DNA of 51,648 nucleotides from assembly GCA_049999805.1 (NCBI GenBank), contig JBNGIO010006279.1, positions 436,167 to 487,814 of the forward strand, read 5' to 3'. This DNA comes from Folioceros fuciformis (Eukaryota). Position numbers and translations under genes: made by a program. Shown one piece after another: positions 5,297-50,957 of this stretch. Under the pieces are notes generated by a model. That model saw only the letters and a list, made by a program, of their open reading frames with translations, did not search any database and was not told the origin of the DNA. Numbering within the stretch: position 1 is the first letter of the stretch; each line of letters opens with the position of its first letter.

Positions 5297-5951
5297 CAAA
5301 ACAACATTTTGATTTGTAGCATTGGTCAGATGTATGTGCACATGAGTCTCACTCAGCAATCTGCTGAATGGGAACGTGTGTGCTAAGGTTCTGGTCAGTA
5401 CCTACACAATTTCGAAGTGTTCGAAGATGTTCATGGGTGCCTAAGGAAAAATTTCTAAATAATTTTTCTAGATCAGCCACATGAGGCAGAGGCACTATGG
5501 CCAAAGGCAGAGGGCGTCGGGTTCTTGAGCCACTTCTGCAGCAAGTTGCTTGTGATCTGCCTGCATGTCCAAAACGGAGAGATGTGAGGAATTTATTCGG
5601 GAGTGCCCGATTACCAACAGAGAAAAGACAACCTGGATGTTTTCGAAAGGGATACAGGCTTCGAGTGAATCGAGTAGGTGCCCTGGAGCGGTGTCAAGAA
5701 CTCTGTGATGAGTTTCGGGGATCCTTGTTGCCGTTGAATCCAGGTGCATAGGATCTCGTCATTTATGAAGTCTCTCCTGGACGTATCACCTTCCGGTACT
5801 GAATCCTTGGGGAATTCTCATTCATGCCTTGTGTGTCTTTGCATCTCCACAAACCACCTATCAGTACGCCCGAATGGTGTGGTCATGCACATCACCTGGG
5901 CAATTTGCCTGTCTGTGATAACATTCGTCTTCAGACAACGGTCCCTGAAGG

Positions 5952-8900
5952 ATGCCCACGGTATGCAAACCGGACTCGATGTCCACCCGACAAATTGGTT
6001 TGGGTACAGGGATTCTACCAGGATCTGCAGCAAATAGATCCTCCAGGTGCAGCACTGTAATGAGCCCAGCACTTCCCCTTCTGAGAAAATGTGTGGGTAG
6101 GGGCTGGTTACCGAGCAATGGTTGCTGCCACGAGCAGGAGCAGGAACACGAACAGGAGTTCTTGTGGCAACAATTTTTCCTGGACCCTACCATGTGGTGG
6201 GACAGAAGACGAGATAAGAGGAGCTCCCGTTCGCCTGATTTCCGACGGAAGGGGTCCGGCGAGCTGCTGTGGTTAAACAACATGTTCAAGCCAGCTTGGG
6301 TTGATGAGCAGCTCGGTTCCTTGGATGTGCAGATGGGCCATGGGGTCTCTCCTTATGAGTCCAGCCCACCGGATAAGCCTGAACCTGGGAGGCATGCAGG
6401 GTCGGCAATGAGCGTCGTCACGCCTGGAACAGTGAGCATGTTATGTCAGCAGGGGAAGCTTCTGGAGGCCGTCGGAGCCCTGGAATGTCTGGCGCAGTCA
6501 GACTCGGTCGTTTCCGAGTCTCTGCTTTACACTGTGCTCAAACTGTGTACAGCGAAGAAGGATTTGGTTGTGGGGCGACGAGTTCATGATCTCATTGCCA
6601 AATTTGGGTATGGATCGAGTGCGTACTTGAAGAATCATGTCTTGCGCATGTATGCAAGTGGAGGTAGGCTGCAGGAGGCCATGGATGTGTTCACCAGGAT
6701 GGGGAAACCAAATGTTTTCATGTGGTTCTCCATTATTTCTGCACATTCTAAGCACGGGAAACCTCATGACGCCATACAATTGTACCTTGAGATGCGTAGG
6801 TCAGGAGTGCAGGGTGATGCTCACGTCTTTGCAGCTACGCTTCAAGCTTGTGCATTTGCCGCCGACTTGGAATCTGGCAGAAAAGTGCACAGTGATGTGG
6901 TGCAGAGTGGCATTCCTACTAACTTGTTTGTTGGGACCTGCCTGGTGGACATGTATGCAAAATGTGGCCAACTGGATGAGGCACGACAGGTTTTTGACAG
7001 CTTAGCCACGAAGAATGTGGTGACATGGACCGCCCTGATTGCTGGGTATGCACAGCAAGGGCGTGGGCATGAGGCGCTTGTCGTGTATGGACAAATGGAG
7101 CAGGAGGGCGTGGTTTTGGCTAACCATGCTACTTTTGCTTGCCTTCTGAAGGCTTGTGCAAGCACAGGTGCCTTGCAGAAAGGTAGGCAGCTGCATTCAC
7201 AGGTTGTCGAAAGAGGACTGCTGGATGATGTAGTGGTGGGCACCTGCCTGGTGGACATGTATGCAAAATGTGGTGAACTGGAAGATGCACGCCAGGTTTT
7301 TGATGCCATGGCCACAAAGGATGTGGTGACATGGACAGTGCTGATCGCTGGGTATGGACAGCAAGGATGCGGCCAAGAGGCACTTGTTGTGTATGAACAG
7401 ATGGAGCAGGAAGATCTGCTGCTGGCTAACGATGCTACTTTTGCTTGCCTTCTTAAGGCTTGTGCAAGCACTGGTGCCTTACAGACGGGCAGGCGGCTGC
7501 ACTCACAGATTGTTGAAAGAGGACTGCTGGATGACGTGGTGGTGGGCTCCTGCCTGGTCGACATGTACGCAAAATTGGGTGAACTGAAAGACGCGCGCCA
7601 GGTTTTTGACATGATGAACACGAAGAATGTGGTGACATGGAATGCCCTCATCGTTGGGTATGTACAGCAAGGGCTCGGTCATGAGGCGCTTGTCGTGTAT
7701 GGACAAATGGAGCAGGAGGGCCTAATGTCAGCTAACCATGTCACTTTTGCTTCCCTTCTGAAGGCCTGTGCAAGCACTGGTTCCTTACAAAAAGGCAGGC
7801 AGCTGCACACGCAGATTGTTGAACGAGGACTGCTGGATGACAATGTGTTGGGGAGTTGCCTGCTGGACATGTATACAAAATGTGGTGAACTGGAAGATGC
7901 ACGCCAGGTTTTTAACACCATGGCCTCAAAGGATGTGGTAACCTGGACAGCGCTGATGGCTGGGTATGCACAGCAAGGATTCGGCCAAGAGGCGCTTGTT
8001 TTGTATGGAGAAATGGAGGAGGTGGGCCTCATTTTGGCCAACAATGTCACGTTTGCTTGCCTTCTGAAGGCCTGTGCAGGCACTGGTGCGTTGCAGACGG
8101 GCAGGCAGCTGCACTCACAGATTGTCGAAAGAGGACTGTTGGCTGACGTGCTGGTGGGCAACGGCCTGGTAGACATGTATGCAAAATGTGGTGAACTGGA
8201 AGATGCGCGCCAAGTTTTTGACAGCATGAATTCGAAGGACGTGGTGACATGGAATGCCCTGATCGCTGGCTATACACAGCAAGGACTGGGCCAAGAGGCG
8301 CTTGTGGTGTATGGAGAAATGGAGGAGGCGGGCCTCATTTTGTCTGACCATGTGACCTTTGCTTGCCTTCTGAAGGCGTGTGCAAGCACTGGTGCCTTAC
8401 AGAAGGGGATGCAGCTGCACTCACAGATCGTGAAAAGAGGACTGCTGGATAACGCAGTGCTGAACAACTGCCTGGTAGATATGTATGCAAAATGTGGCAA
8501 ACTAGATTCTGCACGCAGGGTTTTTGACAGCTTAGCGACAAAGGATGTGGTGACATGGAACGCCATGATATCTGGGTACGGTGCTTGTGATGAAGGTCAC
8601 AAAGCACTAGCTTGTTTTGAGGAGATGTTAGTGGACGGAGTTCAGCCTGACGATGCAACTTTTACTTGCCTTCTAGCTGCATGCAGTCATGAGGGACTGG
8701 TCCACGAGGGTCGCAAGCACTTCGCTTCCATGGCTGAACAGCATGGCATCAAACCTACACTTGAGCATCACAGTTGCATGATTGATCTTCTTGGTCGTGC
8801 TGGCCATTTAGATGAGGCAGAGAAGATTCTATTAGCATGTGAGGAGCAAAGTAACGTCGTGGGCTTGACGTCCATGTTGAATGCCTGCAAACGTCATGGG

Positions 8901-9458
8901 GATATAGAGAGAGCGGTGTGGTGTTTCGAACACATTGTTAGGCTGGACCCTCAAAGGGCGTCGGCATATGTGCTCATGGCCAATGCCTACGCAGATGCAG
9001 GTATGTGGACCGATGTAGACAGGATTGAAACACAGAGAAGGGCAGCGGGGGCAAACAAAAAACCTGCAGTGGCAACCATTGAAGTGAATAAGGAGGTGCA
9101 CAGATTCCTGGTGGGAGAAAGGAGAGAGGATATTGCACATCAGGTAGAGAGTACAAGTGCACGCCTGAAGCAGGAAGGTCATATACCTCACACAAAGTTG
9201 GTGTTGAAGCCAATGTCTGAGAAGGGAAAGGAAGATGCGCTCTGTGGGCATGCTGAGAAGCTGGCTCTGGCCTTTGGTCTCGTGAACACTCCAAGTGGGA
9301 CCCCTCTGATTGTAACAAAGAATCTACGCATGTGTAGTGACTGCCACACTTCCACGGAGATCATGTCAAGGCTTGAACAGAGAGACATCGTTGTAAGGGA
9401 TGGGTACCGGGTTCATCGATTTGCAGCTGGTCGTTGCAGTTGCAAGGGTCGACCATGA
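5952..9458 (+). CDS. PLS-class PPR protein with N-terminal PDF-like motif, E1/E2 and DYW:KP deaminase domain ending GRP (putative U-to-C organellar RNA editing factor); start at 5952 or 6060
   Basis: Single-exon 1168-aa ORF with ~23 P/L/S motifs and 306-bp triplets. KKPAVATIEV replaces the PG box; also HAEKLA, KNLRMCSDCH and the C-terminus RCSCKGRP. Confidence 0.95.
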   Translation: MPTVCKPDSMSTRQIGLGTGILPGSAANRSSRCSTVMSPALPLLRKCVGRGWLPSNGCCHEQEQEHEQEFLWQQFFLDPTMWWDRRRDKRSSRSPDFRRKGSGELLWLNNMFKPAWVDEQLGSLDVQMGHGVSPYESSPPDKPEPGRHAGSAMSVVTPGTVSMLCQQGKLLEAVGALECLAQSDSVVSESLLYTVLKLCTAKKDLVVGRRVHDLIAKFGYGSSAYLKNHVLRMYASGGRLQEAMDVFTRMGKPNVFMWFSIISAHSKHGKPHDAIQLYLEMRRSGVQGDAHVFAATLQACAFAADLESGRKVHSDVVQSGIPTNLFVGTCLVDMYAKCGQLDEARQVFDSLATKNVVTWTALIAGYAQQGRGHEALVVYGQMEQEGVVLANHATFACLLKACASTGALQKGRQLHSQVVERGLLDDVVVGTCLVDMYAKCGELEDARQVFDAMATKDVVTWTVLIAGYGQQGCGQEALVVYEQMEQEDLLLANDATFACLLKACASTGALQTGRRLHSQIVERGLLDDVVVGSCLVDMYAKLGELKDARQVFDMMNTKNVVTWNALIVGYVQQGLGHEALVVYGQMEQEGLMSANHVTFASLLKACASTGSLQKGRQLHTQIVERGLLDDNVLGSCLLDMYTKCGELEDARQVFNTMASKDVVTWTALMAGYAQQGFGQEALVLYGEMEEVGLILANNVTFACLLKACAGTGALQTGRQLHSQIVERGLLADVLVGNGLVDMYAKCGELEDARQVFDSMNSKDVVTWNALIAGYTQQGLGQEALVVYGEMEEAGLILSDHVTFACLLKACASTGALQKGMQLHSQIVKRGLLDNAVLNNCLVDMYAKCGKLDSARRVFDSLATKDVVTWNAMISGYGACDEGHKALACFEEMLVDGVQPDDATFTCLLAACSHEGLVHEGRKHFASMAEQHGIKPTLEHHSCMIDLLGRAGHLDEAEKILLACEEQSNVVGLTSMLNACKRHGDIERAVWCFEHIVRLDPQRASAYVLMANAYADAGMWTDVDRIETQRRAAGANKKPAVATIEVNKEVHRFLVGERREDIAHQVESTSARLKQEGHIPHTKLVLKPMSEKGKEDALCGHAEKLALAFGLVNTPSGTPLIVTKNLRMCSDCHTSTEIMSRLEQRDIVVRDGYRVHRFAAGRCSCKGRP

Positions 9459-17563: not shown

Positions 17564-19719
17564 ATGGCTTCGGTGCTGAACCAGAAGCGGCAGACGGAGA
17601 TCGTGCATGGAAGTGGGGTGGAAGGCGGCGGGGGCGGGATGGCCGTCTCCAAGATGATGATCAAGCCTGTGGTTGAGAAGTTTCCGGTCGGGAGGAAGCC
17701 GGCCGGGAAGACTGTGGACAAGGAGTGGAATGTGCGGCCCCGGATGGCGGCTTTGGAGAGCCGGAACCCGATTCGGGATATTGTGGAATCGAAGCTCAAG
17801 GTTCGGAGCTGGATTGACCTCTGGAAGGTGTTGGGGAGGGGTGTGAGAGTGTGTGGAGGTGTTCTACGGTTTGTGGAGGTGTCTTCGTTCTTGCATGTGT
17901 CGTGATCCTGTGTGTCTTACTTTTCTGTGCTGTCTGCCTGCTTTTGCGCCGTGCAGCCGAACCCGAATTTGGGGAAGAAGCCCATTTCTTTGGCGCAAGG
18001 GGATCCCACGGTGTACGGACACCTCAAGGTGCCGGAATCGGCTTGCGCTGCCCTGGCTGAGGGGGCTATGAGCTACAAGTATAATGGTTACGCTCACTCC
18101 GCTGGGATTTTGGAGTGCCGGAGGTAAGACTTCGGCGTTGCCGACCGACGCTGGTGCTAGTGTTTGTCGTTGGCCGACTGTGGGACGGGTTTGCTCATGG
18201 CGTGTGGTGGTGCTCGTCTTGGTGCTGGTGCAGTGCTGTGGCTGACTTCCACTCGGAGCACCTCCCCTTCGAGCTTACCGCAGAGGACGTCGGCATTGTT
18301 GTGGGATGCTCGCAAGCGATCGAGTTCTCGATCGCCTGCCTCGCGGCGGAAGGGAGCAACATGTTGGTCCCCAGGCCCGGGTTCCCGATTTACGACACCT
18401 TCTGTAGATACTACGGTGTCGAAGTTAGATTTTACGACCTTCTGCCTGAGAGGGGTTGGGAGGTGGACCTCGAGCAGGTTGCGGAGCTGGCGGACGATGA
18501 TACGGCGGCCATGATATTGTGCAACCCGAGCAACCCGTGTGGGACGTCCTTCAGTTATCAGCACCTGGCCGAGGTCTGCTCTCTGTTTCTACGCTTTCCC
18601 AAGATTTCCTCATATTTGTCGTTTTCGACTGCCGCTTCATGCTCCCGCCTCTCATGTGGCTGGCCTGGCACACTGCAGATCGCCGCTGCGTGCGAGAAGT
18701 TGAAACTGCCTATAATATCTGACGAGATTTACGAGCACATGCTGTTTGGGGAAAAAAAATTCACTCCTATGGCCACTTTTTCATTGCAAGTGCCAGTGTT
18801 GACTGTCGGAGGAATTTCCAAAAGGTGGTTGGCCCCAGGGTGGCGGTTGGGATGGGTTCTCATCTGTGACCCATGCAGCATCCTCGAGACGAGTGGGGTA
18901 AGAACCTGCCTCAGCCGCGCCTCTCGTGATTACCTGCTTGTGATTCTCTCGCCACGGAGGATCTCAAATTTCCTCGGTTTTTGCGTTCAGGTTGTGGAGG
19001 CCCTCAAGAGAATCATGCAGATGACTATCGGAACCTCTGTTCTCGTTCAGGTAAATTTCTTTCGTTTGCCTCTCTCGTTCTATCTCTTCTGTTCTTCCGA
19101 TTGAATGCTGAGTTGTTGAACAATGTCCCTGTGCAGGCTGCGGTACCGGCCATGCTGCAAAATACTACTGCCGAATTCTACAAGAAAACTATGAAGACTC
19201 TTGAGGACGGCTGCGACTGCTGCTACAGGCGCATCCAAGGAATTGTAGGATTGGATGTGCCGACAAAGCCCGATGGCGCCATGTACATGATGGTGAGTGC
19301 TTCCTCCCTTGACTAGTTATTATTTGCAATCCTTCGTGGCGTTTCGGTTCGTCAGGGTTGAGAATTTTGTGAAGTCATGATGCATATCGAGCCCGTGAAC
19401 TCTTGCCAGGCCAAGGTGGACCCTAGTGCTTTTAAAGATATTTCGGATGATACCGTGTTCGCCGAGAAACTCGTGAAGGAGGAGAATATCGTTGTGCTGC
19501 CAGGTAGGTTGCGCTGCCTACCTAGTGAAATCAGTGTTTGAACGATATGTAGGCACGAGTTTCTTCACTCAGCGAATGACTTGAATGCTTTGTGCAGGCT
19601 CTGCTTTCGGTATTCACAACTGGGTACGTCTGGTTTTTGCGATACCTGTATATATGCTTGAGGAGGCGTTTGACAGGATAGAGGCGTTTTGTCTTCGACA
19701 CGCAGCCGTCCCAAATTAG
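17564..19719 (+). CDS. TAT: Tyrosine aminotransferase (TAT/NAAT/SUR1 family, PLP-dependent), 8 exons
   Basis: Exons 17564-17800, 17957-18123, 18234-18573, 18679-18897, 18991-19050, 19137-19292, 19410-19503, 19598-19719 (GT-AG, in frame). Motifs ISLAQGDPT, YNGYAHSAG, GCSQAI, PRPGFPIY, NPSNPCG, SDEIY and PLP-lysine GGISKRWLAPGWRLGW. Confidence 0.93.
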
Positions 19720-26331: not shown

Positions 26332-29300
26332 ATGGTGCCGGCGTCTATCCTCGGCAGGTCAGCAAGGCAAGCCTGCAGGTAGGCCCAGTAATTGTTTGCT
26401 TGCCCGCGGGCATGTATCTGGCCGCTTCTGAATCTGGCTTGTAGCTGCTAGAAAGCACATCCCGAATTCCTGCTTGTGTTTGGTTGTCGTAGAAGCAAGA
26501 GCAAGGAAGGGATTTCTGGTAACCGAAACTACGGACAGCCGGGTAAACAAGGTAACAGAATTCATGGATTGGTTGTGGCTACAAGCAACAACCAAGGTTT
26601 GATAAATCTTTGCGCATTGCAGCCAAACCTCAATGATCTGGATTTCGTGCACAGCAAAACCTGGGAGGCCATTGGGCGGGGCGAGGATGAAATGCCATCA
26701 GCAAAAACTGGATTTCAGCCTGGATTCCATTTTGGAGCTCACTGTCAGGGTTTTTCGGGTTCTAAGTACGTCCCTCTTCGAATGAGTCTGAACTGAAGCA
26801 ACGATCATGGCAGGGCACTAGCTTATTTCCCTGCGCCTTGATCTTGCAGGGTATTTCGCCATGGAGGGCCCTTGGAAATCGGAACACGGAGCAGACTCTG
26901 GGAAGAAGGGCAGCTCAGTGAGGATGTTGATGTTTTGGATGCCCTGGTGCATGGAGGATATCACATTCCTGCATCAGTTTGCTATCCTGTCCTCAAGGCG
27001 TGCATTGCAAAACAAGATCTCCCTGCTGGCCGGCGGGTTCATGCACTTGCTGTCAGATTGGGTTATGAGTCAAACACATTTTTGGCCAACCATATCATTC
27101 GCATGTATGGGTCTCACGGGGAGTTGCAAGAAGCCACTGCGGTGTTTTACAAACTTGCAGCACCAGACTCCTTCGTCTGGTCCTCCATCATTCTGGCACA
27201 TGCTAAATCTGGGCAACTTATACAGGCTCTTGAACTCTATCAGCAGATGCGGCAGTTGGATGTGACACCCGACAATTATGTGTTTGCTGCAGTGATCAAA
27301 GCATGTGCCAGCGCAGCGGACCTAGCATACGCAAAGCAGATCCATGCTGACGTTCTGCGTTGTGGGGTTGAATCAAATCTTTACGTTGCAAACTGTATGG
27401 TTGACATGTATGCCAAATGTGGGAGTTTAGAGCATGCCCGCCAAGTATTCGACAATATGCCAAGGCGGGATGTGGTTACTTGGACAGCCATGATGGCAGG
27501 GTACTCTCAGCAAGGACTTGGTTATGAAGCGCTTTCGCTGTATGAAGGTATGCAGGAGGAAGCTGTCACTCTGGCTAATGATGTCACATTTGTGTGCCTG
27601 CTGAAAGCGTGTGCAAGTACAGGAAATCTACGCAAGGGCCAGGAGCTGCATTCTCAGATCCAAGAAAGAGAACTCGGAGGAGATGTTGTTGTTGGCAATT
27701 GCCTGGTTCATATGTACGCAAAGTGTGGGAGCTGGGCAGATGCTCGCGAAGTGTTTGATGCACTCCCTAAAAGAGATGCGGTAACATGGACATCTATGAT
27801 TGCAGGATATGCTGAGCAGGGTCTCTGTCAAGAGGCCCTCGCTCTTTGGGCAAGGATGGAGCAGGAAGGCACCATGTTAGCTGACCCCGTCACATTTGTC
27901 TGCCTTTTGACCGCCTGCATCAGGGTTGGCGCTTTAAATGAGGGCAAGGAGCTCCACTCTCAGATTCGGGAAAGGGGGCTCGAGGCCGTCACGGTTGTTG
28001 GTAACAGCCTCGTGGACCTGTATGCAACTTGTGGCAGCTTAGAGGATGCACGCCAGGTTTTCGATGGATTGTCAAGACGAGATCTGGTGACATGGAATGT
28101 CATGATTGCAGGATATTCTCGGCACGGGTTTGCTCAAGAAGCTCTGCTTCTGTACGCAGAGATGCAACAAGAGGGTATCATCCAAGCTGATCATGTAACA
28201 TATGTTAGTCTCTTGAAAGCGTGTGCCAGGGTTGGAAACGTGGGTCAGGGGAAGGAATTACATGGTCAAATCCAGGAAAGAGGATTTGAAGCCCATGTGA
28301 TTGTAGGCAATGCACTGGTTGACATGTATGCGAAATGTAACAGCTTAGAGGATGCTCGTAGAGCCTTTGACAAAATGGCCTCAAGAGATATGGTGGCATG
28401 GACTACAATGATTGCAGCATATGCTCAACACGGGATAGGCCAAGAAGCACTTGCTCTCTATCAAAGTATGCAACAGGAGGGCGTGGCTCCAGTGGATCAA
28501 GTTACATTGGCATCCCTTCTCAAAGCGTGTGCCAGCATCGGAGCCCTGGGTCAGGGAAAGCAACTCCATTCGCAGGTTCAAGAACGAGGACTTGAAGGTG
28601 ATGTGGTTGTCGGCAGCAGCCTCGTGGACATGTATGCAAAATGTGGCAGCCTAGATGAAGCACATATGGTGTTCGATAGATTGCCAGCGAAAGATGTGGT
28701 GACATGGACCGCCCTCCTAAATGGGTACGCCCAGCACGGTTGTGGCCAGATGGCAATGAAGTTGTTTAGAGAGATGCAGCAGCAGGGAGTCAAACCAAGT
28801 GCTTCAACTTTCAGTTCTCTTCTGGTGGCCTGCAGCCATGAGGGCCTGGTGACTACCGGTCAATACTATTTCAGATCGATGATGGAAGACCATGGCATGG
28901 TTCCGAATGAGTATCATGTGTCTTGCATGGTTGATGTCCTTGCACGATCTGGCCACCTAGATGAGGCAGAAGATTTGATGCGGACCATGCCACCTGGGAA
29001 TGGCCTCGTTGTGGGCTGGACATCTCTACTCAGTGCCTGCAAGGCGTATGGCGACATCGACCTTGCAAGGCGTTGCTTCGACCATCTCATCAAAATAGAA
29101 CCTCAAATTGCAGCTCCATATGTGCTGTTGGCAGATATCTACGCTGGTGCTGGCAAGTGGGCGGATGCAGTCTCCATACAAGCCTTGAGAAAGTCAGCTG
29201 GTGCTTCCAAGAAGCCTGCCATGGCCTGGATCGAGGTGGACAACAAGGTTCACTCCTTTATTGTTGGGGAAAACAGGGCTGACATCTCATGCAAGTTAAG

Positions 29301-29613
29301 AAGTGTAAACCTGCGGGTAGCAGAGAAAGCAGGTTATATTCCGCACCCTGAGCTAACTATGAATCCACCATCAGATAAGGACGATGAAGCTGCCTTGTGT
29401 GGACACGCTGAGAAACTTGCGCTTGCATACGGTCTTCTCAATACTGCAAACGGCACAACTTTGGTGGTCACCAAAAACCTTCGAATGTGCAATGACTGCC
29501 ACAATGGCACCAAGGTGATGTCCAGGATTGAGAACCGAGAGATTATAGTTAGAGATACCCATCGTGTTCACCATTTTGTGAATGGTTTTTGCACATGTGG
29601 TGATCGCCATTAG
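26332..29613 (+). CDS. PLS-class PPR protein with DYW:KP deaminase domain ending DRH (putative U-to-C editing factor); 3 exons (26332-26378, 26493-26765, 26850-29613)
   Basis: Two phase-2 GT-AG introns join R-rich MVPASILGRSARQACR.. in frame to the 913-aa PPR ORF. Motifs KKPAMAWIEV, HAEKLA, KNLRMCNDCH and C-terminus FCTCGDRH. Confidence 0.93.
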
Positions 29614-41112: not shown

Positions 41113-42212
41113 TCACATATAGTCTGCGGTGAAGGGAGTGACAAGCGGCTTCCCTCCAAAGTGGGCATCCAGATTGGCAACCACCAGGTTGCCCATCCCC
41201 CGCCTGGTTTCCCAAGTCAGGCTGGCGGCATGCGGCAGAAGGACCACATTGTCCAGACCCCAGAGCTCCTGCGGCACATGAGGTTCGTTCTCATACACGT
41301 CCAACCCAGCTGCTCCCAATCGACCTTCCAGGATCGCGCTCACCAGCTCCTGCTCGTCCACCACAGGGCCCCTGGCAATGTTGATGAGCGTGCCCTGGGG
41401 CCCCAACGCATCGATAATCTCCTTCCCGACGAGGTGGAAAGTCTCCTTGGTCAGGGCACAGGACAGCATCAGCATATCGCAATTCTGCGCCAGCTCCAGC
41501 ACCGTGGAGTAGTGGGTGTAGGGAATCTTGGCCTTCTTGGATCTGGAGTGGTAGGAAATGAGGCAGCCGAACGCCTCCGCCCTCTTCGCAATGGCCAGCC
41601 CGATCCTCCCGAGGCCCACGATCCCCAACCGCTTGCCATTCAGCTGCATCCAACCCGCCCTCAGAACCCATGAGCAGGAGAATAACCAAAGCAAGCAAAG
41701 TGCGGGGCAGAATCAAAGAAAAGTGCGGAGCAGAATCAGGCAAGAGTGCGGAGCAAAATCAAGCAAAAGTGTGTTACCCTGGGAGTGAGGGGAAAGTCGC
41801 CATGAATGGGCCATAAGCCCTTCCGCACATATCTGTCCATGGCGCATACTCTCCGCACAGTGGCGAGCAACAGCGACATGGCCATGTCCGCGCAATCATC
41901 CGTGAGCACATCAGGAGTGTAGGTGACCAGCACGCCCCTCTCCCGACACCGTGGGATGTCGATGGCGTTCACCCCAACACTGAAGGAAGCCACGATCTCC
42001 AGTTTGGGTAAGGCGTCAATGAGCTCCGCGTTGGCTCCCGACGCGTTGGCCACCACAGCCCGGATCGACTGCGCGTGCTCCGCCACGAATGCCTTGGGAT
42101 CAGCCGCCTCCCACATTCTGTAGTGCGTGTACTTGGCGCTGAGCGCCGCCTCCAGGTCCTCCAGCATGGGCTGCGTCTGCAACACACCGGGCTTCTTCCC
42201 CGTGGCCACCAT
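41113..42212 (-). CDS. HPPR: Hydroxyphenylpyruvate reductase / HPR2-type D-2-hydroxyacid dehydrogenase, 321 aa, 2 exons (42212-41778, 41643-41113)
   Basis: [35 protein letters not shown], Rossmann [16 protein letters not shown], and catalytic NIARG / DVYENEP / LPHAAS. Phase-0 GT-AG intron. Confidence 0.92.
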
Positions 42213-43948
42213 GGTCGCAGCAGCGGCAACAAGCGTCCCCCGTCCCCGATCCGCCTCCGCAATGCCCCCCTCCTCCTGGCTCCGGTGCTGGGCTCGCACG
42301 CGGTCGGGAGCAGGGGCGGAGGTGCTCAGTCCGCGATCGGAGACGGAGAAGAGGAATATGAAAGAGACGCCAACAGGGCGCCACCGCCCGCCCCAAAAGG
42401 AGGAAACGGAGGAGGAAGAGTAGGCGGAGAAGACGCAGAAGCAGGCGCGCATCAACGCCTGGCTGCCCTTGCTCCGGGCCTGACACTCCCGTCACCGTGC
42501 GGCCTGCCGCGATCGCCTCCTCCTTCGCTTATTAGAGCGAAGCGCGAATTTTCACGACCCAGGCCAATCATGCTGGGAAGGAAGGAGCGGTAAGAGAGAT
42601 TGGAATTGACCCCATTTCACATGCAATCATGCAGGCAGGCCAGGCCAGGCTAGGCCCCTGGTTCTACCAGCACACTCTCTCCACACTACTAGCACACAAG
42701 CCCAAGTCCCCAGTCTCACCCGAACGCTCGCTCGGTTTCTCCTCCCTTCCCGCCTCTCTCTCCTCTCTCTAGCCGCCCGGAAGTTGGAATGGCCGCAGTC
42801 AACCAGCACGATGCTGCAAGGCTCTGCAGAGGACGCGGAGGTATGTAAAAGAAGCCGTGAAGAGAAAGACAACGGAAAGATGGGGGGAGCGTCCATCTTT
42901 CCGGCGGAAAGAGATTCGGTGGCCGGAAAGATGGAGCGGGTACCATGGTGCGCATTATTGGCAGGAGACCGGCGGTAGGCGGTTGCGTGAGCCACGGCGG
43001 GCCACGTCCTGCACCGTCCACTTTCGCGGCTGCTTCTGCTCCGCTCCGGGGAGAGGGCAGGTGACATGAATGGTTGGGGAGGCTGGGGCGGGCGGACCGA
43101 CCTTTTTTACATGGCCTACGCCAGGTCGTCAGCCCTCGCCTCTCTGAGGCTGCTAGCCCGCCTGCTTCTACATGCTTGTTAACAAACACTTCACACACAG
43201 GGCTGAGCTTGTCGCTACTCTGCGGCAAGTACAGTACCGGCTCTGTTCGTACCTCGTCTCGGAGTTCGGTGTTTCTCAGCCTCGCTTCCCAGATGCTTCG
43301 CTTTCGAGCCGTGTGACTGCCTGATGGACTGGTTCCACTGTAACATTACAACCATCAGCTTGTCTGCACTGCTGTCGAAGTGCCTGCTTGAAGCAAGCAC
43401 GGTGGTTGGAGTGGCGGCCCACGAGAATCGCTCACCTGCCTCTTCGCTCTCTGGCAAGGCGCAGGAACGTTGGAAGGTTGGAGGAACCGGGGTGGGAGTT
43501 GGGCATGGGAGAGGGGTCATTTGACTCAATCCAGCTGGAGGTAACTTGAGCTTTCGTGCTCACAAAGAACAGCAGATCACTCTGACGTGGTAAAATTACA
43601 CATGTTTTCGCAATGTAGTTATTTGATGGAAGTACACCAAAGGGACAAAGGGAGAGCATCCCGGCTTTAGTGGCCAAGTACACTAAAAATCTTAACCTGG
43701 ACATAAGCGAGTAATCCGCGATCGATTGGCAGATCAAAATTCAAGGTCTCAACAGACGCCGACTTTTCCCAGACGCTGCACTGGCTGGAATGGTCGAGCG
43801 GTACTCTCTGTAACGTACAATACAGCCTTTTCCGACTCCCGAAGCAGGGGAGTGGAGAAACCAAATAATGGACCCGATTCCACCGCTGTGGCAGGTTGCG
43901 GCAACAAGTGGAGTGCCACCTGCAGCCGTGGAAGATGGGTCTTCTACC

Positions 43949-46033
43949 TCACAAATGCAGGACGGTAACGCCGGTGATGAATTTCGGCTCCATCTTGTCA
44001 GGTCCCCTCGGGATGATGCTGACTACCAAGGGCTCGGTGCTGGACTCGGAGACGCCGGTTTGAGCAAGGACTCCACTGATGGCTATGCGGAAGTTTTGGG
44101 TGCGCCAGTCCTGATGCTCCACTTCGCCGTTAGGTTTGATAGCGGCGGAAGTGTGAGGAATTTCGTAGAACGTTCCAGCATACTCGGCGATGGTGATCGG
44201 CGTGCTGCTGTCGGCTTCCGGGAGATTTATGAAGATGTCAAAGATGTTCGTCTTCATCATCGGGGTGACGAGCCCCTCGATCTCCAGGACCTCCTCTGCG
44301 ACAGGCGCCAGCCTCGCGGCCTCGGCACCACGCCTGAGCAGGGACTTCACGGGTCTGTTAACCCGGAAGTGAAACGGCTGCCCGCCGATAGTGACCTGAC
44401 TTTGCCCCGGCATGGAGGCGGGCCCCATGACCGGAATACCCGCCACGTGTGTTACTGCCCAGTCGTGGTCAGCCTCCAGAATATTCCAAGCAGGTGCAGA
44501 CTTTCCTCTCCACCACTCGCTGGCCCAAGACGGAAGGACACAATTCACCAACGCACCGATTTTGGACTGTTTCTGCTGCGCCCTAGCCGCGGTTTGAAGG
44601 ATTCTGGAGCCTTGCGACAGCGGGAAATAATTCGCCCAAGAGTTCTCCACCTCCTCGTATCTGTACCGCAATCTCTCCGTCTCCTGGCTGCCAGAGACAT
44701 TCACCACCACCCCGTCGCCGTTCTCGTCAAAGAAAATGAACTCCGTGTCTAGCCAATCCGATTCTGTGGGATTTTGTCGCCGGCCTCCAGGAAGATTGTT
44801 CCACACAGTCCACAACCTATCCAAATTGCAGTGCAATCCGTAGAAGACCGGGTCGCGAGCAGCAGAATAGAAATTCCCCATGTTCTCGTGGTCAGCAGAG
44901 GTGAGATCCGCCACCCAGTCGTGAATGCTGTTGTGCGGAATATACTCAATTGACCCGCCTCCAGGTGCCGCCGGCGTCCCTTCCACAAATTTGTGGCCGA
45001 AGAAGGTGTGAGGGACAGTTGAAAGAAAAATATTCCTGTTCATGCTGATCCTATTGCGCTCGTTCAACTCCGCATCAGAGTAAGGAGAATCCCCTACATT
45101 GAATCATACAAGGCAGAGAGCGTCAGACTGGACCGATTTGGCATCCATTCTCCTCCCGGACATGCTGCAACTCGTCCGTCCCGGAGGATCAGACAGTAAA
45201 TGCACTCAAACCAAAATTGCTACAACCAATCGGACACAAAGATGCACAGCTCATTTCAATTCATTTCACCAAACTACTACCTTGTGGTCTCTGCTCCACA
45301 ATCTGAAATCTCCCAAGTGCAATGCTCGAATTACGTCACACGCAATCCACACTACATCGTCAGCAATGGTTGAAAACTGACCAGAATCCACGATGAGATC
45401 GAAGGGGATATCGATCGTTCGTGGCGGCATGTGGAACTTGCTCCGCAAAGGATCCCCGAGGGCGCTCCACTCAGTATACTGCACGGGGAATCGGTTGGCA
45501 GGATGATGCTCCTCAGCGGCGGTAAGGTTGTCGAAGTTCCAGAAGGGAAGAGCGAAGGTATCGTCGTCGATGAGCTTGGCCAGGATGCGCTCATGGAAGT
45601 AAACATACCAGCGGTGCCAGGGCAGGAAGAGCCAAGACTTGTGGATGAGGAGCACGGTTTCCGGCGCCACGCCCCGCTGAATGAGCGCGTTGTTGCAGTA
45701 AGCACAGTGCATCCAGGCCTGGATGTTGTGCGTCCGGGGATCGTCATCCGGCAGCGCCCGCAGCGCAGCGTAGGCCCGATTGTACTTGTCCCAATACTCG
45801 GTGTCGTTCACCAAGGTGTGGATGGGGCGCCTAACCCGCATCGGCAAGTCTGTTTGATACTGGAATGGCTTCACGGATCGGGGCACCGGCGGGCAGCACC
45901 GGTAGTTAGCGTGCGAGAGCTTGAGCGTGATGTTCCGGCACACCGCGAAATCGGGGGTCTTGAGCGGAGCTCCTGACACGCATTGCACTAGCAAAAGGGC
46001 CAGACTCCATCCCAGCCACCGCATCGTCGTCAT
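43949..46033 (-). CDS. PPO: Polyphenol oxidase (type-3 copper), 598 aa, N-terminal signal peptide; 2 exons (46033-45382, 45093-43949)
   Basis: CuA HCAYC...IHKSWLFLPWHRWYVYFHE; CuB EYIPHNSIH...MGNFYSAARDPVFYGLH; DWL, FDIFIN (KFDV-like) and EYAGTF motifs. Phase-1 intron G|gtcagt...tgtag|GG. N-terminus MRWLGWSLALLLVQCVSG/AP. Confidence 0.93.
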
Positions 46034-47155
46034 CCTGCTGCTCACACTCGTCACTCCTCTCCGGGCTTGCGCATCGAGGATTCAGGTGAGCTCAGATAGC
46101 CGCAGCGGCAAAGGACCTAAGCAATCAACGGCGGCAAAGCCGAACGCTGTGTAGACACAGCCCGGACACTGTCTGGAGAGAAAGGCACACGACAGAGCAG
46201 CTAGCGCGCCTCGTGGCGCAGAAGCACATCAATATAATGCACAGCATTGAACAACTGGCCAGGCGGGCGACTAGACTAGGCCCAGACTCCGCCACGCTTT
46301 CTCCTCCTTGTCTCTCTCAAATAATGGACAGGAATGGAGGAGCACCCGCGAGTTGCGCCTCTTACGTACATACGTACTTTCGGGTAAAGTTCCTTGCACC
46401 TGACACGTTCCGACGTGGCCGACATCCTGCTCCCTGTGACGCCCACAAAGCAACGTTTCGTTTTGCACAGGACGGTCTTGAAAGAAGCGTCACCTTTATG
46501 GAAGCAGGGCCACAGATTGCTTGTGGCATCCATTTTCGCTTTCCAAAGTTCACTTTGCAGGCTGTCTGCCGCACCAGGCACCAAAGGAATCAGGCATGTT
46601 CGATGAACGAATTACTGCACTGCGTGGCAAGTCTCAGCTCCCAGTCTTGTTCAGGGTGTACGAAACTGGTAACAGGATGTGAGGTGGGAATTTGGAGTTC
46701 ACATACTCTATTCGCACTTCTTTCGCACTACTCTGTTCCATTCGGTCATTGGTAGATGAAGAGCGATTTGCTTCATCGGCGAATTGCATGTCAGTGAACT
46801 GTAGCTGTTGTCCAGTTAGATAGTGAGGAAGGAGTTGAATGGAATCATCCCTGTCCTGTTCATCAGGCCGACGCCTGGAATCGACCCAATAAGAGCGTGT
46901 CAAGCAGCAGCCATCTCATGAGTTGTTATAATAGTCTGTTTCGAAACATGGATTAGGTAGAAATCTGTCAGGGACAAATATAAGAAAGAATAAAAAATGG
47001 CCGATAGCGACAGATTCCGTCACATCGCCCGGATTCCCTATCAGAACCGCGAAGACACTGACTAAGAACTCCTGGGAACCTAAAGCTATGCCTGTGAGAT
47101 GAGAAACGATCTCGCAAGCAATATCTACGAAGACCAAAATTGGTTCTGCAGCCAC

Positions 47156-48347
47156 TCACACCTGAGGAGTTTCATGCTTGTAGGAGTAGGGCGCCCCGAA
47201 CAGCACATGGTCATACCAGTCGAAAATTTCAGTCTTCTTCAGACTGGTGACGGCATGTACGCCATAAGCCACGTTGAGCTCCTCGGCTATCTCCGTCTTC
47301 CAGCACAGTTCCGCAGCGCACTCGTCCAGCACCTTGTCCCTCCGGAGGACCTCCACCCACTCCTCGTTTAGACGCGGATTGTCAGTGAGGTAGCCGTCGG
47401 CATTGATCCACCCGCTGGCCCTGAGGGAATTGAACACCGCGATGGACAACTCGGGGGTGAAGCACGGAATGCGCTCGATAAAGATGAGCGGGTAGAGCTG
47501 CATATCCCCACAGACGATGGTGTCGTGGTCCACCCCGAGCCCCGCCACCTGCGAGATGCCATACAGGATGTAGGGCACCAGTTCATCCTTGGCCATGTAC
47601 ACAAAGAGCGTCGGCGGGAAGAGGTGATTGGCCTGATCCAAAGCCTCAGGCCTGCCAGGGGCGACAACAAGGCCGATCGCGTCCAGGTGATAGTACAGCG
47701 CCAGCACCGTGGAAAAGTTCCCGCCGTTAGACACTCCCAGAGACACGATCGGCAGGTCCGCGATCCCCTCCCGGTCCCGCCAAATCTCCAGAATGCTGAG
47801 ATACGCACGCAGGTCGGTAGAGTCCTCGGGAGGCCACATCTGCAAGCACAAACTTAGGTCAGGCCGGGACGGAAAAACGTCTCACAGGCAGCCGGGAACG
47901 CAAACCCTCGACACTCACATCGTACTCGTAGCCCCCACTCCGGATGGCGATCACGTTGCCATAGCCGCGTTGGATGCCCTCGAGGATGTTGAGCCTGTCT
48001 TCCGGGAGACCCGTGCAGACGGGGCACCTGGGCGTCCTATCGAAGTAGCGGAAAGGGTCGCCCCCTCGGGCATGAATCATCACCAGCACGGCCTTGGCGC
48101 CCGGGGTGGTCTGCCAGATGACGTCTCGGCCGTCAATGACCTCGTACACGGGGTCGAAGAGCGGGTCCGGGATGTTGCATCCCACATTGGAGAGCTCGCC
48201 TCGAGCCCGCTCCGTGGGCATGGCGATCTGCAAAGGCTCGCCCTCCACATCGGTGGCGGGCAGAATCCTGGAGGCGTACCCCGGGCACAGGATGGAGAGG
48301 AGCAGCAACGCCAGCATCGTGCACTTGCCCATGGTTTCCCCGGCCAT
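47156..48347 (-). CDS. Signal-peptide alpha/beta-hydrolase-fold protein of unknown function (~370 aa), 2 exons (48347-47919, 47839-47156)
   Basis: Hydrophobic signal MLALLLLSILCPGYAS, oxyanion-region AVLVMIHARGG, CPVCTGLPED, nucleophile elbow LGVSNGG, acid PTLFVYMAKD and His EELNVAYGVH. Phase-0 GT-AG intron. Confidence 0.8.
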
Positions 48348-50152
48348 CGCAGCAACCTTCTGCCGGGTAGGGCTTCGCAGAATCTGAAATTCCTGCCTTC
48401 TCCAAGGCATACCGACCTTCTCTAGTTCGGCCAGGGCTTTAAAGGGACCGAGGAGAGAGATTATAGGCGGGCACCAGATGCTTCGTTGATTGGCGCAAGG
48501 TGAAGTTTCTCCGGGCAGGAATGCGGCCACGCACGCCTCCTTCATCTCTCTCAAATAATTCCCTTCTCTTCTCACCCGATCGCCATTTGAAGGCCGCGGA
48601 CGACTCCGTTGTACATTCTGTACATACGCTGTCTTCTGACGAAACACGTACCGAATGATCGGCAGGTACAAGTACAGTGGGAATATACCATTCAATGTGC
48701 ATATAATAAAATATAGAGTCAAATCAAAATTAAGATACCTAGGTGCCTGTGAACAGGAATATATATATGTACACGCCGGGTGTTAATGTTTTAAGTTGCA
48801 AGGTTTTCAGTGGCAAGTGTTGGAACATATGTTTAAGGTTGAGATTTTGTTATCAAAAAGAGGCGGACCTCAAAAGAATGCTTATCGAGATAGAGAAGAT
48901 GTGGAGGAAGTATGCCCCCACCAAATTGTAAGACCAACCACATTTGTCTTGTGTGTGTATAGGTGGATCATGTTCCATGCTAAACCTAAGGAGGAGAAAA
49001 ATTTCAGCCCTTCTCCCTGGACAAATGTTCTATAGGATATGACCAATGAGTTTGCTCATATAGACCAAGTCTGTTGCTCTCTTCGTTTGGTGTTCTATCT
49101 TTGTTTAGTGTACTTTCTCCATCTTGTTTTGCCAATTTATATATGTGTTCAATGCTGAAATGCTCATCTACCTTAAGACAAAAGAGCACAAAACCATCCG
49201 GACTAATCCTTATGGTCAAAAATCTTCTACTTGCTTACTGCGCCTAGGATATCAAAATTCAAGGATAAAAAGGGTCTACAGTACTTAGTGCCAATATTGA
49301 AGATGTTGCTTCCACTACGCTTGCCATTGTCTTTATACACTATGTGAGCCAATGCTTATTACTAGGTGATGGACACTCTTTGCCTATAAAATACACAAAA
49401 GAGAGAGGGCACTTCCACATCTCCCACAATTGTATTCCTAAGCAAGGACAAGGCTTGAGAAAGACACACTTCTCACCAAAGGCGCTTGCCCTCTTGCATA
49501 GCATCTACAAATAGTCTACACATAAATTGAGAACCTCCTATGGTGTGGACATTAAAGCTAGGCTTAGACATGTTGTTTTCCTTAGAATTTGCAGCTCTTT
49601 CTCAAACTCTAGCACCATTGCACCCTCAACTCACAACCGTCTCCTCCTCAAAGCCTCCTAAGATTATTTCCCCTCAACTTTTTCCACTATTTTCTTCAAG
49701 TTCGGTTTGCTTGCACAGAATAACGACATAAGCAAAAACCTAGGCCATTTAGTCCACAGAACACTAGGAAACTTTTGCCATACATTTCCCTTGCTTCACA
49801 TCTGTCCATGACCCTGCGCCCAATGCCACTATAGCCATCTTAGCTGCCACCTTCATTCATGTTAGTTGCTATGACACGGAAACATCTTATTTAGTTGTTA
49901 TCTCCTTTGAACAATAGGTTAGCCACCTCAACCTCCAATGGCTCCCTCTTCATATCTATATTCCCTTCTATAGTTCATTGCAACTCCCCCATAAGTCATT
50001 TAGGGTTACAAGGACTTGTCTCTGCTGACCTTGAATTCAACATTGAATTCCTTCTACTTAGGCTTACCCCTTCCCTTGGCCTTAAATTGTGGTCACTTCT
50101 TGCTTGGCTTGCATGTACTTTCAAGAATCCAATATTGATGCAAGGCAAGCCA

Positions 50153-50692
50153 TCAACCTATAGGAAGAATCCCATCTACAGAATTTTGCACCAACCATAG
50201 TGGGTACTCTTTAAACAATTCCATCATCAAATTCGGTTGATTTATAATCAGAGTTTGGTCCACCCTACGGGGTGAAAGAAAAACAATGTCCGCCTTTAAA
50301 TTTGGCACAAGTTTAAAAAAGTCTCCTACAATAAATTGAATGCGATCTTGTACTCCACAAATTTTTGCATTATGCTTTGTAAGTTTAATTTTCTTGGGGT
50401 CGATATCAATTGTTATAACTTTATAACCTTGCAACGCAAACTAGATAGTGTTTCCACCTGCACCAGCAAAGCCATATATGATTTTTGATTTTGTTGGACA
50501 CCTGCATACTTGATGCTTGGCTAATACCTCAGGAGTTATTGAATATAACGACTCTTTGTCCAATTTAATGCCCCAATCATATTTGGAGAATAGTTCATAC
50601 CTATTTCTCCAATACTTTTCCAATGATTTGTCTTCTCTTATGCATTGTAGAGTGGGTCTTGGATTGACGCGGACCCGAAGAAGTTGCATCAC
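50153..50692 (-). pseudogene. TGS1: Intronless trimethylguanosine synthase (RNA cap N2-methyltransferase) pseudogene fragment
   Basis: KYWRNRYELFSKYDWGIKLDKESLYSITPE, GFAGAGGNTI*FA (in-frame TAG at 50441-50443), IDIDPKKI, HNAKICGVQDRIQFIVGDF and DIVFLSP followed by a disrupted PPWGG. AT-rich context. Confidence 0.85.
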
Positions 50693-50957
50693 TATTCCTT
50701 AGTTTGGAGCATGACATACTTAATATATCTTGCTAAGGTTGGAAACATGTCTTTAGAAGTACGTGGTTGTATGGTGCGCCTCCCTTTGTTGTGTAATAAT
50801 GTCGTGTTAAGTTTCTTGATTGCATGATGATGATTTGTTGTGTTGAGTTACTCGATTCCATGATGTTGATTTGATGTCCTATGGAAAGAGTAGACATCCT
50901 CAGCCAGAAGAAAGTAGACGGTTGATGGTGCTATTATGGTGGAGTGGTGCTTTCAAG

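Follow-up and report, generated by a model that had tools for sequence, protein, structure and literature searches.

A predicted secreted serine hydrolase in a loose cluster with tyrosine aminotransferase, HPPR and polyphenol oxidase genes in the hornwort Folioceros fuciformis: a candidate enzyme acting on hydroxycinnamoyl esters

In the hornwort A. agrestis, whose cultures contain caffeoyl-5-O-shikimate beside much rosmarinic acid (PMC12774947), the enzyme that forms the ester is stated to be missing, as is an effective CYP98 (PMC12774947, PMC13646711, PMC8891189). A window of 51,648 nucleotides from Folioceros fuciformis, by which we mean the whole stretch of DNA analysed here, carries a hydrolase gene next to genes for a polyphenol oxidase (PPO) and an HPPR-type hydroxy(phenyl)pyruvate reductase (HPPR), which raises the question of whether this hydrolase takes part in the metabolism of such esters. 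The original prediction, made from the sequence of the window, had proposed it as the missing ester-forming enzyme or as a rosmarinate esterase, given that a BAHD rosmarinic acid synthase had not been demonstrated in hornworts; statements in papers up to 2026 support the view that hornworts have no known rosmarinic acid synthase (PMC12774947, PMC13646711). In the open-access literature we found no published description of the cluster, and no paper on the hydrolase family or on a plant rosmarinate hydrolase. On balance, our results suggest that the hydrolase acts on hydroxycinnamoyl esters and is co-regulated with PPO, within a loose cluster of tyrosine aminotransferase (TAT), HPPR, PPO and hydrolase genes.

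The hydrolase gene (Table 1) is intact, spliced and expressed. Contigs of run X1, which was taken to be RNA from the splicing seen in them, join position 47839 to 47919 exactly, and the same junction is crossed by an intron-less fragment of 197 nt (91% identical) on contig C5148. Spliced X1 contigs cover the hydrolase, PPO and HPPR in one run, although such contigs cannot rank expression. Runs X2 and X3 yielded nothing of use. The spliced translation contains all the motifs that had been read in it originally (GVSNGG, MAKD, YGVH and CxxC-GLPE), with the G-x-S-x-G nucleophile elbow and the Ser-Asp-His order of a serine alpha/beta-hydrolase, and its ESM Atlas features match Abhydrolase_2/Peptidase_S9 clusters (0.94, 151/256 features). 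The predicted signal peptide was likewise recovered, as a basic n-region, an 11-mer with a hydropathy of 2.97 and the residues P-G-Y-A-S (as read from the sequence itself), and the protein is predicted to be secreted. No Pfam family matched either exon. The hydrolase lacks the BAHD motifs HxxxD and DFGWG, a Peptidase_S10 domain (no PF00450 match on its contig), and the GDSL motif, the SGNH DxxH and a PF00657 match. Its first strand reads HARGGD, which corresponds to HxxxxD; this was discarded as a sign of a transferase, being a weak motif present in only 6 of the 141 rows of the family alignment described below. The fragment on C5148 (L102:6684-7500) consists of a Sec6 piece followed by the 197 nt of spliced hydrolase sequence, a chimera lying amid Copia-type remnants.

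Table 1. Positions of the features of the locus in the window (position 1 is its first nucleotide)
Feature	Position	Strand	Remarks
TAT	17564..19719	+	8 exons, 464 aa, single copy
HPPR	41113..42212	-	321 aa, 134-nt intron, 2-hydroxyacid dehydrogenase type
Three GTAC motifs	43229..43252		roughly 1 kb before the start of HPPR; motif scan
PPO	43949..46033	-	599 aa, predicted signal peptide, 288-nt intron
Upstream block, PPO copy	46291..46325	-	with GTAC motifs at 46366 and 46374
Hydrolase gene	ATG 48347, stop end 47156	-	two exons, 370 aa, one stop
Hydrolase exon 2	47156..47839	-	Ser180, Asp228, His338, stop
His338 codon	47257-47255	-	YGVH motif
Asp228 codon	47587-47585	-	MAKD motif
Ser180 codon	47731-47729	-	GVSNGG = aa 178-183
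Hydrolase intron	47840..47918	-	79-nt GT-AG
Hydrolase exon 1	47919..48347	-	predicted signal peptide (about aa 1-25), HAR strand, CxxC-GLPE
CxxC-GLPE	48026-48015	-	hydrolase exon 1; CPVCTGLPE = aa 108-116
HAR strand, aa 92-94	48074-48066	-	hydrolase exon 1
Upstream block (34 nt), hydrolase copy	48526..48559	-	15-nt exact core 48545-48559
Five GTAC motifs (65 nt)	48611..48675		predicted SBP-box/SPL sites before the hydrolase gene

The original view that the hydrolase belongs to a conserved, uncharacterised family holds. At least 15 full family loci and one fragment (C5148) were found in its own genome, and a profile of these loci retrieved 1894 representative relatives at E<=0.001. Of these, 150 were listed, and 126 entered an alignment of 141 rows (15 own proteins and 126 retrieved proteins of 250-560 aa), of which 122 retain the Ser, Asp and His together. 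All 20 representatives that were looked up are unnamed or hypothetical, and one cluster member bears the automatic label 'dienelactone hydrolase domain'. This widespread plant family has no Pfam model, and weak Abhydrolase and BD-FAE matches were obtained for a few of 109 members. Members of this streptophyte/eukaryote family such as Lycium XP_060175116.1, Setaria XP_004969942.1, Calypogeia CAM6092062.1 and Selaginella XP_002986311.2, all uncharacterised, resemble the hydrolase in the WQ-P, CxxC-GLPE, GxSxGG, MxxD and terminal His motifs. The best identity to the hydrolase is 35% among the 150 relatives listed, and its closest paralogue in the genome, L002, is 36-37% identical. Word-indexed protein searches with the hydrolase gave no match, a result that carries no weight given the 1894 profile relatives.

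When the family profile (109 rows) was compared with the PDB, the best match was the feruloyl esterase 8IY8 (E 1.5e-5), followed by the PHB depolymerase 8DAJ (7.4e-4) and the acetylxylan esterase 5X6S (2.4e-3). The 8IY8 match covers profile positions 71-183 of 373, i.e., the N-terminal half, beginning at the HGC strand and reaching as far as the nucleophile elbow. All three structures belong to the ESTHER Esterase_phb family, and they are described as having a disulfide near the active site in common (PMC12103068), which aligns with HGC and CW of the hydrolase family. The Esterase_phb/CE1 enzymes (AsFaeE 8IY8, LtPHBase 8DAJ, AlAxeA 5X6S and AoAxeB 9J07) are secreted serine esterases, of which AsFaeE has been solved with ferulic acid (PMC12103068). 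In contrast to CE1, the hydrolase family has the CxxC-GLPE insertion, the match is weak and of half length, and the conserved disulfide near the site (C40-C75 in AlAxeA) is missing from the hydrolase. PF10503 (Esterase_phb) matched neither the hydrolase nor the 109 family members. As far as sequence comparison can tell, the kinship with CE1 is remote, and the CE1 matches include acetyl and PHB esterases. The presence of an acetylxylan esterase and a PHB depolymerase among them favours the main alternative, which is that the hydrolase is a general secreted esterase (for wall acetyl or feruloyl, cuticle or lipid esters) brought beside PPO by local rearrangement, together with a promoter piece that has no link to a pathway. 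We give this explanation a substantial chance, somewhat below even.

The place of the hydrolase within its family was examined in a tree of 40 rows (15 own proteins and 25 high-ranking relatives chosen from the 150), with a midpoint root only. One own protein, L004, grouped with moss, liverwort, lycophyte and seed-plant proteins (support 100/98) in what we call canonical clade A, and the other 14, the hydrolase included, lay across a branch of support 95/96 with proteins of Calypogeia and Selaginella and unnamed proteins (clade B, defined here). Inside this derived subfamily, the hydrolase falls into a subclade of six rows with L002, L003 and Calypogeia P0010 (support 98/94), on a long branch of 1.26. 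HGC, CW and HE are kept in all 10 canonical rows counted (the eleventh, P0044, was left out), whereas HGC or CW occurs in none of the 20 clade B rows, where HE is lost as well. The hydrolase accordingly lies outside the canonical orthologue group characterized by HGC, CW, GASSGG and HE: it carries HAR and YEYDMW where canonical members have HGC and CW, has HA as against HE, and bears a signal-like stretch at its N-terminus, while the hydrophobic stretch of the canonical clade mostly lies further in. By sequence, it is a long-branch paralogue in a derived subfamily common to liverworts and lycophytes. The single-copy housekeeping orthologue, which would have spoken against the original prediction, is excluded, since L004 is the canonical orthologue and the genome holds 15 loci. 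A hornwort-specific paralogue is rejected at the subfamily level, as liverwort and lycophyte proteins share the clade; in this 40-row tree the gene is a paralogue, not the canonical orthologue, but its subfamily is not confined to hornworts. The claimed divergence at the oxyanion strand stood in one part, as HA in place of HG was found in the hydrolase alone among the 141 rows (HG in 121). The next position, however, varies freely across clade B, with Arg the commonest residue (5/20), and the HAR divergence is therefore mostly a trait of the subfamily. Members of the subfamily are found in Calypogeia and Selaginella as well, for which rosmarinic acid is not reported (for liverworts, according to PMC8041713), and this again favours a general esterase. 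The paralogue L031 (C6150) has no signal-like stretch and no CxxC, and carries a long Gly-Arg-Pro repeat insert that is also found in Calypogeia P0023.

Pfam matches to Tyrosinase, PPO1_DWL and PPO1_KFDV, and the HPPR-type 2-hydroxyacid dehydrogenase, bore out the two neighbours named originally. HPPR, PPO and the hydrolase are consecutive on the minus strand within 7.2 kb, with gaps of 1.7 and 1.1 kb, and TAT, which ends 21.4 kb from HPPR, comes within 31 kb. Six unrelated genes separate TAT from HPPR, namely three PPR genes, a calmodulin-like gene, a DNA glycosylase gene and one unassigned gene. A search of the genome with TAT gave one close match of two listed, the other being 28% identical. 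The spliced TAT sequence of 1395 nt encodes Asp263, Lys296 and Arg435 and has a second early ATG; its length, catalytic residue numbers and second early ATG equal those given for AaTAT (PMC8041713), and its start reads MASV as against MATV in the published AaTAT primer. We infer that the window TAT is the orthologue of the characterised AaTAT. HPPR is present in two copies in the genome, and enzymes of this type also serve photorespiration (PMC10978636). Under uniform scatter, and estimated post hoc, the chance of TAT lying this close to HPPR is about 0.001, and that of some hydrolase of the 15 lying beside some PPO is about 0.03; PPO genes occupy about 30 loci on 27 contigs. At least three enzyme classes of one plausible pathway lie side by side here, as they do in plant biosynthetic gene clusters. 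A general esterase would leave the position of the single-copy TAT near HPPR to chance.

The CuB site of PPO consists of Glu267-His271-Asn272-His275-Asp276 (Glu-x-x-Pro-His-Asn-x-x-His-Asp). An Asn after HB1 with a Glu four places before it was proposed as a rule for monophenolase activity, which was later partly disproved (PMC8672867), so that we take these residues only as a lead towards such an activity. PPOs and phenylpropanoid genes are reported to rise under nitrogen starvation (10.1101/2024.05.22.595400). A second secreted PPO gene, the closest paralogue of the first (L034:276-2265, minus strand, C6279), lies about 25 kb from it; this second gene, which is 75% identical over the CuA region, has the same CuB residues but lacks the upstream block described below. 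Elsewhere in the window, one RNA contig (39938-41496) spans the 3' end of the DNA glycosylase gene and the 3' half of HPPR, which reflects either a convergent gene pair that overlaps at its 3' ends or a contig that was merged. The window holds four long PPR genes, and those at 5949-9458 and 26842-29613 end in the deaminase-type GRP and DRH, which we take to mark hornwort-type editing factors. At 50153-50698 (minus strand), a broken fragment of an RNA cap methyltransferase gene (TGS1-like) lies in AT-rich repeat DNA.

Comparison of the upstream regions revealed a block shared by the hydrolase and PPO (Table 1), whose 15-nt core is located 212 nt before the ATG of the hydrolase and 292 nt before that of PPO on the same strand, and occurs exactly twice in 87 Mb, at these two places. 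None of 1000 shuffled promoter pairs had 15 nt in common, and at least 15 nt were shared by 13 of 6555 real upstream pairs, with 10 overlapping pairs set aside. The 34-nt block scores 39. When either promoter was compared with other upstream regions, none of the 218 comparisons came up to this score, and 1 of 1461 random pairs did. Corrected for the 15 promoter pairs that had been compared before the 15-mer was noticed, the chance amounts to a few percent if only the 15-mer is considered, and to less for the 34-nt block. The flanks of the block no longer align between the two genes. Clusters of three GTAC motifs in 40 nt occurred 15 times in 514,708 nt, and the cluster upstream of the hydrolase is the only one in that DNA with five in 80 nt; GTAC is the SBP-box core, which SmSPL6 is reported to bind in promoters of Salvia phenolic acid genes (PMC8348295). 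No copy of the block was present near PAL or HCT, nor near the second HPPR or PPO gene, and it therefore marks no pathway-wide regulon. A scan of the upstream regions for AC elements gave nothing telling. The upstream regions of PPO and TAT have 13 nt in common, a match that was set aside because control pairs often reach this length and the 14-mer is absent from TAT. These sequence patterns suggest that the block likely reflects co-regulation of the hydrolase and the adjacent PPO, and it may also be a relic of local duplication. Under the general-esterase explanation, the preservation of a genome-unique block between flanks that no longer align would be another coincidence.

The surroundings of the 14 other paralogues were surveyed over about 10 kb on each side where contigs allow, using ORF filters and Pfam on selected ORFs. 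No phenolic-pathway gene adjoins 13 of the 14 in the stretches covered, in which small multi-exon genes may be missed. The neighbours are mostly housekeeping, PPR or transposon genes, which, in a family of 15 paralogues, is what a general esterase would lead one to expect. The one that remains, L011, begins some 2.2 kb downstream of the only HCT-type BAHD gene (L076:6096-7677, plus strand, C5933), the next best BAHD match being 39%. Counted from its second Met, as in AaHCT6, this HCT has 434 aa, with 47.3 kDa and a pI of 6.0 vs 47.5 and 6.22 for AaHCT6. This second pairing, of L011 with HCT, would also be left to chance if the family comprised general esterases. An acyl-activating enzyme gene lies two genes away from L014, and L012 and L006/L007 are located 27 kb and 43 kb from PPO genes, respectively. 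On C6371 (62-84 kb, L113-L115), PAL, two secreted PPOs and a gene that we presume from its motifs to be carboxylesterase-like lie within about 21 kb, which argues for the general-esterase explanation in that such groupings can recur where PPOs and esterases abound. An SCPL gene is found about 30 kb before PAL on the same contig.

Plants have lactone-forming carboxylesterases, and under a further alternative the hydrolase would be a lactonising or non-hydrolytic partner of PPO, or a weakly active accessory, downstream of rosmarinic acid (e.g., towards megacerotonic acid-type lignans, which occur in hornworts according to PMC12774947). The long branch with a best identity of 36%, the HA peculiar to the hydrolase and the co-location with a secreted PPO fit such a role, but the triad and nucleophile elbow are intact and nothing at the locus points to lactone chemistry, which makes it very improbable. 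Action on hydroxycinnamoyl esters remains our preferred reading, and the nearby single TAT, the block common with PPO and the distant feruloyl esterase kinship make its context stronger than that recognised originally.

For an enzyme acting on hydroxycinnamoyl esters, established alpha/beta-hydrolase chemistry would have Ser180 attack the ester, His338 and Asp228 forming the relay, to give an acyl-enzyme that probably carries a caffeoyl or coumaroyl group. In AoAxeB, the oxyanion amides are those of Arg76 and of Asn150 beside Ser149 (PMC12103068), and by analogy the backbone amides of Arg94 and Asn181 would form the oxyanion hole here; as backbone amides would be used, HAR need not impair catalysis. 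The hydrolase and PPO would presumably occupy the same vacuolar or apoplastic compartment. TAT and HPPR have no signal peptides, so that transport steps must be assumed, which speaks against this reading. By default, water would take up the acyl group, and caffeic acid and hydroxyphenyllactate would become available to PPO; alternatively, transfer to (di)hydroxyphenyllactate would yield rosmarinic acid or a precursor. We lean modestly towards hydrolysis. Transfer is conceivable in view of the caffeoyl-5-O-shikimate in A. agrestis cultures (PMC12774947) and because caffeoyl esters serve as donors for secretory SCPL and GDSL enzymes, which transacylate them without CoA in the vacuole and the apoplast (PMC13415971). 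These acyltransferases (EpCAS, SlCGT and IbICS) are functional analogues only, with no sequence relationship to the hydrolase. The caffeoylshikimate esterase AaCSE1 of the MAGL family is a hornwort alpha/beta-hydrolase that acts on caffeoyl esters and has HxxxxD in common with the hydrolase, but it belongs to a different family and is described as not cleaving rosmarinate (PMC12774947). That the hydrolase is specifically a rosmarinate-forming transacylase appears unlikely.

A convergent, clustered hornwort route to rosmarinic acid would employ TAT and HPPR for the supply of 4-hydroxyphenyllactate, the CE1-related hydrolase as the transferase that provides 4-hydroxyphenyllactate with the coumaroyl or caffeoyl moiety of a shikimate or glucose ester, and the co-regulated secreted PPO, with Asn and Asp next to its CuB histidines, for the ring hydroxylation, a step at which hornwort CYP98 performs poorly. 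The locus offers one candidate each for ester formation and hydroxylation, tied to TAT and HPPR. If the route were real, both missing steps would be filled at once, a fourth class of plant acyltransferases would stand beside BAHD, SCPL and GDSL enzymes, and the family, with its 14-member derived subfamily in this genome, would gain its first function. We consider the complete route doubtful. In a fern, one of 47 BAHDs was reported to be the rosmarinic acid synthase, after an earlier failed search (PMC13710588). Because the fern synthase was a BAHD and the present genome has 13 BAHD loci, a non-BAHD route is disfavoured; these loci, together with some 17 SCPL loci, are rival candidates for the rosmarinic acid synthase. 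Among the BAHDs, the divergent L081, L083, L084 and L087 are conventional candidates for this enzyme.
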